DNA of 64,000 nucleotides, taken from the IMG/VR virus record IMGVR_UViG_3300022074_000015, positions 22,371-86,370 of that record; one strand, given 5' to 3'. Position 1 is the first letter of the stretch, and every line of letters starts with the position of its first letter. The notes beneath the pieces were generated by a model that saw nothing but the letters and a program-made list of their open reading frames with translations, did not search any database and was not told where the DNA came from. Position numbers and translations under genes: made by a program. Below, in pieces: positions 33,058-33,472 of the stretch. This stretch comes from a virus.

Positions 33058-33290
33058 CGTTCATCCCATGCTCAGCATACTGCTGGCATTAACCCTTGCC
33101 CATCATAATGATGCGTCACCTTACGGGTGGCACATAAGTTGTGAAAGGTTTCTACAGAGAAGAATTGAAATCCTTATGGATGACAATTTTGATCGAAGAA
33201 CTAAGTATAACTTAATAAGTTATCTTAGATCGAAGTTAGAAGGTCAATGCAATCAGACGCTGACATAGGACGCAAGTAAGTCGCGGAACG
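33058..33290 (+). ncRNA. Glutamine-II (Downstream-peptide) riboswitch-like aptamer 1, with an ORF inserted in the P2 loop
   Basis: CGTTCATCC...GGACGCAA...GGAACG. P1 = CGTTC/GAACG; P2 = TCCCATG(C)TCAGC paired with GCTGACATAGGA. Confidence 0.65.
33068..33268 (+). CDS. Small hypothetical protein (66 aa, hydrophobic N-terminus) nested in aptamer 1
   Basis: In ORF track; MLSILLALTLA..., two Cys. Confidence 0.65.
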   Translation: MLSILLALTLAHHNDASPYGWHISCERFLQRRIEILMDDNFDRRTKYNLISYLRSKLEGQCNQTLT

Positions 33291-33293
33291 GAG

Positions 33294-33472
33294 CGTTCAT
33301 CCCATGTTTGAATTTTTACTTTACTCTGGTATTCACTGCACCGATGCTAAGGATATGATCCGACGTATTAATGCGAATAAAAGTGTAGATGTTATTATCA
33401 GAACTGAGGTGATTGAGACCATAAAGGGATCAACACCTGAGTGTAAATGGGACGCAAACGACTGAAGGAACG
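33294..33472 (+). ncRNA. Glutamine-II (Downstream-peptide) riboswitch-like aptamer 2, with an ORF inserted in the P2 loop
   Basis: CGTTCATCCCAT...ATGGGACGCAAACGACTGAAGGAACG; lies upstream of a DUF4278-like peptide, the known context of this motif. Confidence 0.75.
33304..33465 (+). CDS. Small hypothetical protein (53 aa) nested in aptamer 2
   Basis: Manually translated: MFEFLLYSGIHCTDAKDMIRRINANKSVDVIIRTEVIETIKGSTPECKWDAND*; below the ORF-track size cutoff. Confidence 0.65.
   Translation: MFEFLLYSGIHCTDAKDMIRRINANKSVDVIIRTEVIETIKGSTPECKWDAND

Follow-up and report, generated by a model that had tools for sequence, protein, structure and literature searches.

A probable glutamine riboswitch variant with two conserved genes within its helices in cyanophage genomes

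Can the aptamer of a riboswitch hold entire protein-coding genes within its helices? Aptamers are usually taken to be compact, contiguous and non-coding, and searches for them assume so. The question is raised by nucleotides 33058 to 33472 of a 64,000-nucleotide viral sequence (IMG/VR record IMGVR_UViG_3300022074_000015, positions 22,371 to 86,370), called the window below and, by its relatives, its tRNA cluster and the neighbouring genes, apparently derived from a T4-like cyanomyovirus. There, a 5' half CGTTCATCCCATG is present twice, at 33058 and 33294, and a 3' half GGACGCAA-N-GGAACG ends at 33290 (as GGACGCAAGTAAGTCGCGGAACG) and at 33472 (as GGACGCAAACGACTGAAGGAACG); the two successive pairs of halves will be referred to as elements 1 and 2. 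A preliminary description, made from the letters alone, had taken them for tandem glutamine-II-like riboswitches, each with an open reading frame (ORF) in its P2 loop. Its statements on the sequence all hold when the window is re-read, and the locus represents an unusual form of a known riboswitch class, real and conserved, with good support for both its fold and its genes.

Glutamine riboswitches, their occurrence in tandem, their link with DUF4278 genes and their presence in cyanophages are already published (PMC2864571; PMC6212724; PMC5473149). The glutamine pocket consists of CGUUC/GGAACG, a CGC strand and a closing C-G pair, and the switch is ON with glutamine (PMC6698751; PMC6212724); the long-range closing pair has been described for Glutamine-II (Huang et al. 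2019, PMC6698751). A survey of cyanophages found just two glutamine aptamers (PMC5473149). The present region was found by blastn in more than 400 cyanophage records (416), and phage riboswitches may therefore be under-counted. Scanning IMG/VR for exact matches to the element-1 3' half yielded over 120 distinct loci; the conservation of the layout is far beyond chance. A scan of genome contigs gave 6 matches, several of which look like cyanophage-sized contigs binned into unrelated metagenome-assembled genomes or assemblies, and no evidence for a host copy.

The nested genes and the aptamer class

All features of the locus lie on the plus strand. As first described, the two ORFs span the intervals between the halves, each with its ATG in a 5' half. 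ORF1 (33068-33268, 66 aa) belongs to phrog_6471 (PHROG E 7e-35) and to the syn9 gp196 family, and lies in the loop of a helix termed P2a; ORF2 (33304-33465, 53 aa) belongs to phrog_504 (E 6e-22) and to the syn9 gp197 family, and lies in the loop of P2b. Both are annotated in several phages, ORF1 as a coding sequence in syn9, Syn19, S-CAM1 and S-TIM5. The TAG of ORF1 falls within CATAGGA, and the end of ORF2 (W-D-A-N-D-stop) reads through GGGACGCAAACGACTGA, its codons being, as had been proposed, conserved nucleotides of the aptamer.

The nested ORFs are under coding selection, with a median ratio of non-synonymous to synonymous rates (dN/dS) of 0.15 for ORF1 and 0.28 for ORF2. The frame is intact in 33/34 long loops for ORF1 and in 87/87 for ORF2, third codon positions are the most variable, and lengths differ by whole codons (53-56 aa for ORF2). 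The only invariant residues are two cysteines in each family, Met1 in the first and the DAND tail in the second. Comparison by hhalign shows homology between the families (94.6%, E 7e-8), with cysteines aligned to cysteines, and the ORF2 protein was modelled by AlphaFold2 as a helical hairpin with a predicted local distance difference test score of 86; the nested proteins are paralogous two-cysteine helical proteins. The WDAND tail of the model is of low confidence, which fits a DAND tail dictated by the RNA. A Foldseek comparison of the ORF2 model with the PDB gave no match better than E 1.8, and Pfam gave none for either protein. The N-termini of some members of the nested families look like signal peptides.

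The start codons occupy a fixed place. The ATG is found inside P2, at an offset of 10-11 relative to the beginning of CGTTCA, in 32/34 long element-1 loops and 86/87 long element-2 loops. Neither ORF had seemed to have an obvious Shine-Dalgarno sequence; this stands for ORF1, whose ATG comes some 14 nt after the probable start of the RNA. ORF2, which begins after an inner hairpin described below, does have GGAG (33290-33293) 10 nt ahead of its ATG. This GGAG is kept in most relatives, not all, and other linkers at its position are GAT, GTA and GGTA.

Searched against Rfam, the window has no match to a glutamine family, either at gathering score or at E up to 10, and does not reach the gathering threshold of RF01739 (Glutamine-I, 35 bits). 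Relatives that are naturally loop-less served as a loop-deleted control. The P2 region of element 1 is a plain hairpin of 12-47 nt in 87 loci and an ORF-bearing loop of 199-234 nt in 34, and element 2 is compact in 7 loci and ORF-bearing in 87; two joints seen in RNA contigs (33303 to 33448 and 33314 to 33447) were taken to come from relatives with a compact P2b rather than from RNA processing, the same compact forms existing as DNA. Loci with both elements compact score 38.4-43.6 bits on RF01739 and align to it as a single aptamer spanning both elements. In S-SM1, a plain CCC-TTCG-GGG hairpin is found exactly where the window has ORF1, and this compact element 1 matches RF01739 with 28.9 bits and RF01704 (Glutamine-II) with 25.5 bits (both E ~0.006). 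One compact element 2 (locus L033) reaches 34 bits on RF01704 against a gathering score of 33, and is the only compact relative to do so. Because compact relatives match these families, the halves are homologous to recognisable glutamine aptamers. The failure of Rfam on the window is explained by the long inserts alone, and the expectation that standard covariance-model scans would miss the element was correct.

Pairing across the genes is supported both by folding and by comparison. The unconstrained minimum free energy (MFE) fold of 33055-33480 given by ViennaRNA contains the pairings proposed earlier. The 5' strand of P2a (33064-33076), which holds the ATG of ORF1 (33068-70), pairs with a 3' strand (33259-33270) holding its stop codon TAG (33266-68) through 33064-66/33268-70, 33068-70/33264-66 and 33072-76/33259-63, as had been suggested for TCCCATG(C)TCAGC; the TCCCAT/ATGGGA pairing of element 2 is found as P2b, between 33300-33305, which holds the AT of the ORF2 ATG (33304-06), and 33447-33452.

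The strands of P2a change jointly in relatives (TCTCATG/CATGAGA, TCTTATG/CATAAGA, TCCTATG/CATAGGA, TCCAATG/TATTGGA, TCTCACG/TGTGAGA), and the stop codon of ORF1, whether TAG, TGA or TAA, varies in step with the 5' strand. Contiguous P2a pairs average 5.71, against 3.88 +/- 0.28 after shuffling of partners, the maximum in 500 shuffles being 4.74. In an alignment of 41 loci carrying both ORFs, 92% of cells are paired against 31-52% in slid controls, and double-sided changes number 42 against 11.8 +/- 3.8 in shuffled alignments, with 0/500 shuffles reaching 42. The pair at P2a alignment columns 34/309 is CG in 22 loci, UA in 14 and UG in 5; in P2b the counts are CG 31, UA 5 and UG 3. The covariation check called for on P1 and P2 thus gave covarying P2a and P2b helices with variable inserts, and invariant P1 strands. 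With P2 covarying across each ORF and compact hairpins taking the place of the ORFs in relatives, the placement of a gene in each P2 loop is supported.

These data also bear on whether an aptamer is there at all. The half-motifs might be recombination or cassette-boundary sequences, or the remnants of a riboswitch broken by genes; the lack of an Rfam match in the window would suit this, and the region is a variable part of cyanomyovirus genomes, with genes present or absent between relatives. However, compensatory changes keep P2a, P2b and the helix P3 (see below) paired, the P2 helices across 150-200 nt; the core shows no nucleotide variation although synonymous sites in the enclosed genes have reached saturation (dS >1); and the helix that covers the downstream Shine-Dalgarno sequence covaries. 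The absence of a working aptamer is already disfavoured and appears highly improbable.

Proposed outer and inner cores

The CGUUC/GGAACG strands, which form the floor of the glutamine binding site, are found at 33058-62, 33285-90, 33294-98 and 33467-72 and are invariant in the 41 loci. A helix follows CGUUCA in both elements, closing over loops of 190 and 140 nt and covarying. CGC is present at 33271-73 and 33453-55 and a G follows GGAACG at 33291 and 33473, both sides of the predicted closing pair being invariant. The three-way junction and E-loop of Glutamine-I are present as well, but only as a composite of both elements, made of AAGUA (33274-78), P3 (33279-83/33459-63) and GAAG (33464-67). 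The junction strand CGC followed by AAGUA, the 5' half of the E-loop (33271-33278), is invariant in the 41 loci and aligns to CGGAAGUA of RF01739, and GGACGCA, in the P2b 3' strand and the junction strand CGCAAA that follows AUGGGA (33447-33458), is equally invariant.

In the Rfam alignment of compact tandems, P1 is formed by the first CGUUC and the last GAACG, the element-1 hairpin serves as P2, CGCAAGUA is supplied by element 1 and GAAGGAACG by element 2, and P3 links AGU(CG) of element 1 to (CG)ACU of element 2. The E-loop is split in the same manner, with the AGUA half in element 1 and the GAAG half in element 2; in the window sequence, element 1 has no GAAG half and element 2 no AGUA half. 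P3 pairs AGUCG (33279-33283) with CGACU (33459-33463), and the stretch that comprises the latter and GAAG (33459-33467) contains the stop codon UGA of ORF2 (33463-65), the last codons of which traverse the inner core and the 3' strand of P3. Variants at the second base of P3 carry a compensating change about 180 nt away in 17/17 informative loci: besides AGTCG/CGACT, the sets are AATCG/CGATT (14/14) and ATTCG/CGAAT (3/3). In the 41 loci the variable pair is GC in 31, AU in 7 and UA in 3, and is never unpaired. A GOS scaffold in Weinberg's alignment has AGUCA with UGACU, a change at position 5.

The preliminary description had let each element close its own P1. This part of it has to be revised, as P3 covaries between the elements and Rfam, RNAalifold and ViennaRNA all favour pairing of the outermost CGUUC with the outermost GAACG, leaving the two middle copies as a local hairpin. 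Assignment to the glutamine aptamer class was right, whereas the two self-closing Glutamine-II units were not, P3 and the E-loop being split between the elements; the fold is closer to Glutamine-I than to Glutamine-II. The best model, which we consider probable, is one outer Glutamine-I-type three-way junction closing over 415 nt by P1 (33058-62/33468-72), the 3' strand of which is followed by G33473, the candidate partner of C33273 in a long-range closing pair. At the far end of P3 there is, with similar likelihood, a second junction that holds every conserved core nucleotide in a circularly permuted order: P3, CG, P1 hairpin, A, P2b, CGCAAA, P3. The P1 hairpin of this inner core (33285-33298) consists of G-GAACG, a GAG loop and CGUUC, with 33286-90 paired to 33294-98, and its loop is always of 3-4 nt with G as first base.

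The nested topology is agreed upon by the MFE fold and ensemble of the window, by the ensembles of the 41 homologues and by RNAalifold, with no covariation constraint imposed. Pair probabilities in the window are 0.75 for the outer P1, 0.77-0.91 for P2a, 0.83 for the inner P1 hairpin and 0.87-0.97 for P2b; the homologue medians are 0.83 for the outer P1 and 0.80 for the inner hairpin. With P3 formed, a single nucleotide ties the element-1 GGAACG to the distal end of that helix; on geometric grounds, the neighbouring CGUUC is within its reach, the CGUUC at 33058 hardly so.

An arrangement side by side, with one P1 per element (33058-62/33286-90 and 33294-98/33468-72) forming two tandem glutamine aptamers, is nevertheless conceivable. 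Tandem glnA RNAs are known (Weinberg 2010, PMC2864571), compact element 1 alone was counted as a glnA RNA in Weinberg's alignment, and the compact element 2 of L033 reaches the RF01704 gathering score by itself; moreover, identical P1 strands permit either pairing. P3 would then be a pseudoknot-like bridge between the aptamers, or an alternative state. Against this, P3 is expected to place the GGAACG of element 1 away from its own junction, each element lacks one half of the E-loop, compact element 1 alone stays under the gathering score, and the linker is always of 3-4 nt, as a hairpin loop would predict. Side-by-side P1 pairings have probabilities of 0.02-0.04 in the window and up to 0.07 with homologues, figures that carry less weight since the models disfavour pseudoknots. 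Combined, these points make both the two-aptamer arrangement and the bridging role of P3 unlikely.

Several observations nevertheless weigh against the nested topology. The four P1 strands being invariant, covariation cannot choose between outer/inner and side-by-side pairing, and we infer the choice of partner. Only one of the five P3 pairs varies in our own data (position 2; our scans found no variants at positions 3 and 4), and the pair probability of P3 is modest, 0.3-0.4 (0.37 in the window). The folding programs cannot represent side-by-side pairing together with P3, a pseudoknot, and this biases the comparison. The G of the inner closing pair is the first base of the 3-4 nt loop, which may be sterically too tight, and because this G sits in a tight hairpin loop the inner core may not bind ligand. 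Finally, in the lineage of P-SSM2, which we take to be NC_006883.1, each element appears to have its own small P3 (AG-CCGA-CU and AG-UUGA-CU), which would also suit two separate aptamers; the nested topology may be lineage-specific.

Glutamine sensing and translation: a proposed coupling

The first gene beyond the aptamer (33535-33702) encodes a DUF4278/YRG-repeat protein of the syn9 gp198 family (phrog_545, E 1.5e-31), the three ORFs of the locus being gp196, gp197 and gp198 in syn9. Its match to Pfam DUF4278 (E 9e-5) is under the curated cut-off, and the product resembles the glutamine-synthetase inactivating factor IF17. A YRG protein comes after the element in 121/121 loci having a following ORF. 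Glutamine riboswitches are usually associated with DUF4278 genes (Klahn 2018, PMC6212724), and the locus has such an IF17-like gene downstream of its leader.

The aptamer strand CU(G/A)AAG, which comprises the end of P3, the 3' half of the E-loop and the stop codon of ORF2, is complementary to a CUU(C/U)AG that abuts and overlaps the Shine-Dalgarno sequence AGGAG of this gene. In the window, six complementary bases allow 33462-67 to take 33519-24 as alternative partner, the CUUCAG and the AGGAG (33523-27) together covering 33519-33527. At the variable position of this masking helix, 125 loci have GC in 60, AU in 39 and GU in 26; AC, expected in about 19 if the aptamer and platform sites were independent, was observed in 0. 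From this we infer that the CUGAAG/CUUCAG alternation is an ON-switch platform. With the aptamer unfolded, CUGAAG would pair with CUUCAG and cover part of the Shine-Dalgarno sequence; in the glutamine-bound fold, the strand would be taken into P3 and the E-loop, the Shine-Dalgarno sequence freed and the switch turned ON, in line with the published glutamine switches (PMC6212724; PMC6698751).

The position of the nested genes would add a further level to this switch. Folding would bury both nested start codons inside the P2 helices, and leave them accessible only as long as the 3' strands have yet to be transcribed or the fold is open. A ribosome that completes ORF1 would sit on the outer CGC strand, on the E-loop and on the 5' strand of P3; one that completes ORF2 would occupy P2b and P3 together with the inner CGC strand, the E-loop and the 3' strand of the outer P1. 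Ribosomes on either ORF would pull the halves apart. Because ribosomes cover aptamer strands and the fold buries the ATGs, glutamine sensing and translation of the nested genes should exclude each other on a single mRNA molecule. Translation of these genes would be expected chiefly on RNA still being transcribed or at low glutamine, and a ribosome at the stop codon of ORF2 would open the helix that masks the Shine-Dalgarno sequence.

Coupling of translation to folding is plausible from this anatomy. The full reading is that a sensor and two genes share nucleotides, with segments up to 410 nt apart and a permuted core within P3, to give a three-way gate: folding on glutamine shuts the nested genes and switches the IF17-like gene on, sensing is vetoed by ribosomes that occupy the nested genes, and termination on ORF2 unmasks the Shine-Dalgarno sequence. 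We advance it tentatively, as a possibility that more probably fails than holds as a whole. If true, it would be the first riboswitch whose read-out depends on translation of genes enclosed in its own aptamer. Binding of ligand and regulation by the present form are predictions of the switch model, and two points count against that model. Burial of the start codons may be independent of glutamine, because P2 of canonical aptamers forms without ligand. In addition, in thermodynamic modelling the Shine-Dalgarno sequence shows no clear opening when the aptamer strand is held (accessibility of 0.36 vs 0.27 in the window; medians of 0.40 vs 0.36), and the argument for the platform rests on covariation and not on this calculation.

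The genes could also be passengers of a real riboswitch, the P2 loops merely tolerating insertion with no regulatory coupling and the aptamer working on untranslated mRNAs only. The length of the P2 loop is unconstrained, from 4 to about 230 nt across relatives; phage Sf-CH5 has a homing endonuclease in the inner P1 loop/linker, an indication that large inserts are tolerated; and 87/121 relatives have a compact P2a and function without ORF1. On the other hand, the ATG forms part of the P2 helix, with an almost constant offset across loci; the stop codons lie within the 3' strand of P2a or within P3/E-loop; and ORF2 is present in 87/94 loci, with a C-terminus that is written in conserved core nucleotides and seems of little structural importance for its protein. 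Overlaps as fixed as these suggest co-adaptation, though they could be leftovers of insertion, and we judge uncoupled passengers to be somewhat unlikely. A well-studied aptamer class here tolerates, and appears to exploit, whole conserved genes in its helices, and the locus provides a natural system for competition between translation and long-range RNA folding as well as a possible natural circularly permuted ligand-binding core.

Transcript, related systems and neighbouring features

A sigma-70-type promoter (TTGACT-17-TATACT, 33020-33048) precedes the element, with its -10 box ending about 8 nt ahead of CGTTCA, a fixed distance kept in relatives. Transcription probably starts near 33055. 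Metatranscriptome contigs from two studies span 33055-33550; one starts at 33055 and none reaches the bases upstream of it, a weak indication, from contigs only, of a 5' end and of a single transcript. Positions 33055-33534 are likely to make up the 5' region of an early phage mRNA, folded as a composite glutamine riboswitch. Immediately ahead of the -35 box, an NtcA-like box GTA-N8-TAC can be read at 32998-33011; it is present in 66/118 relatives at a conserved position, 52-61 nt ahead of CGTTCA, its centre being near -48 compared with the canonical -41.5. An NtcA-like-box promoter, a glutamine sensor and IF17-like proteins on one early transcript point to phage control of host nitrogen assimilation.

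With Glutamine-I (RF01739), the element shares a three-way junction, P1 made of CGUUC/GAACG, P2 starting with UCCC/GGGA, the CG(G/C)AAGUA strand, P3 with the AGUA/GAAG E-loop, a long-range G-C closing pair and a DUF4278 gene downstream, and its compact relatives pass the gathering score of the family. It differs in that its P2 loop holds a 66-codon gene, its P3 loop holds a second core and a 53-codon gene and its P1 closes over 415 nt, and in that its closing pair is C...G as in Glutamine-II and not G...C. In addition, it occurs in phages of marine Synechococcus, the hosts being reported with type 2 only (PMC6212724). Glutamine-II (RF01704), published as an ON switch, has in common the pocket nucleotides CGUUC, CGC and GGAACGG, the C-G closing pair, the association with DUF4278/YRG genes and the marine picocyanobacterial setting. 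However, its 3' hairpin, which carries GGAACGG in the loop and makes CGUUC/GGAACG a pseudoknot, seems to have no general counterpart in elements of the window type, which have the E-loop and three-way junction instead; a CGA/UCG pairing around GGAACG can be drawn in the window but is lacking in the short-form relatives, and a single compact relative reaches the RF01704 gathering score. Tandem aptamers such as tandem glnA RNAs and the glycine riboswitch likewise have two ligand-type cores per leader and conserved contacts between aptamers, whereas in the window one core is nested in a helix of the other and circularly permuted, with genes inside both.

Literature searches for ORFs nested in riboswitch loops gave the case of an upstream ORF (uORF) in M. 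tuberculosis alone, although Ames and Breaker 2011 and Ren et al. 2015 might mention the geometry. In Weinberg's alignment, compact element 1 only was aligned as a motif in the NC_006883.1 row and in several GOS scaffolds, and the adjoining 5' half, ORF and 3' half were left as unannotated flank (Weinberg 2010, PMC2864571). In the closest precedent for a reading frame within an aptamer, the M. tuberculosis metE cobalamin riboswitch, a translated uORF in the aptamer domain affects the downstream gene, and that study states that the effect of riboswitch-embedded uORFs had not been addressed (bioRxiv 10.1101/2023.04.25.538288). The metE uORF has about 16 codons, lies in a peripheral extension (P9-P10) and belongs to no conserved protein family, whereas the ORFs of the window have 53-66 codons, are conserved and lie in loops of core helices, with start and stop codons within the helices. 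Homing endonuclease ORFs reside in loops of group I introns, functional RNAs whose peripheral loops accommodate an entire reading frame, and the start of the MS2 maturation gene is hidden by a long-distance interaction and reachable only before the long-range helix forms. These are ribozymes or viral genomes and not metabolite sensors, and their ORFs share no nucleotides with a ligand pocket.

Some relatives carry additional insertions or copies. In Synechococcus phage Sf-CH5 (locus L150, 560-1190), a gene for a 191-aa homing endonuclease lies exactly in the linker and the 5' strand of the inner P1, with the layout GGAACGGAGCGTT / gene / CGTTCATCCCATG and a duplicated CGTT; the site corresponds to window positions 33291-33298, which makes the endonuclease the third gene to be enclosed by the RNA fold. 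The equivalent region of Sf-FS3 carries an HNH endonuclease. In four loci (L126, L135, L137 and L142), a short hairpin and an incomplete second copy of the 5' half (CGTTCATCTTATGTGTAACATAAGTTCATCTTATG) come between the 5' half of element 1 and ORF1, resulting in two candidate start contexts. A further arrangement comes from NC_006884.1, presumably P-SSM4. At NC_006884.1/165010-165595 (PMC2864571 supplementary file 79), an ORF1-bearing 5' half CGUUCAUCCUAUG lies directly downstream of another structured motif of Weinberg 2010.

Between the aptamer and the Shine-Dalgarno sequence of the DUF4278 gene, a minority of loci including the window have an optional module (33476-33510) made of CGGATC, a GNRA-capped hairpin and (A/T)AAGG; most loci are without it. 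Its stem covaries (ACCC/GGGT, CAGC/GCTG, CTCC/GGAG, CTCG/CGAG, CACC/GGTG). Further downstream, a hydrophobic ORF of 31-41 aa (33680-33805) precedes a gene for a second small YRG-type protein (33816-33980; phrog_6192, motif YRGVTY), and the transcript may encode several IF17-like peptides. The window has no match to the PhotoRC-II RNA (RF01717); two relatives have one, of 55-57 bits, about 5-7 kb upstream of the glutamine element (L015, 1021-1116; L009, 1840-1935). Finally, an inverted repeat spans the -10 box (33029-33054). Its arms covary in relatives, for example as AGGTCTATAATAGACCT, TGGTATAATTACCA and GGTGTTATAATAACACC, which would suit a hairpin or cruciform better than a fixed site for protein binding.

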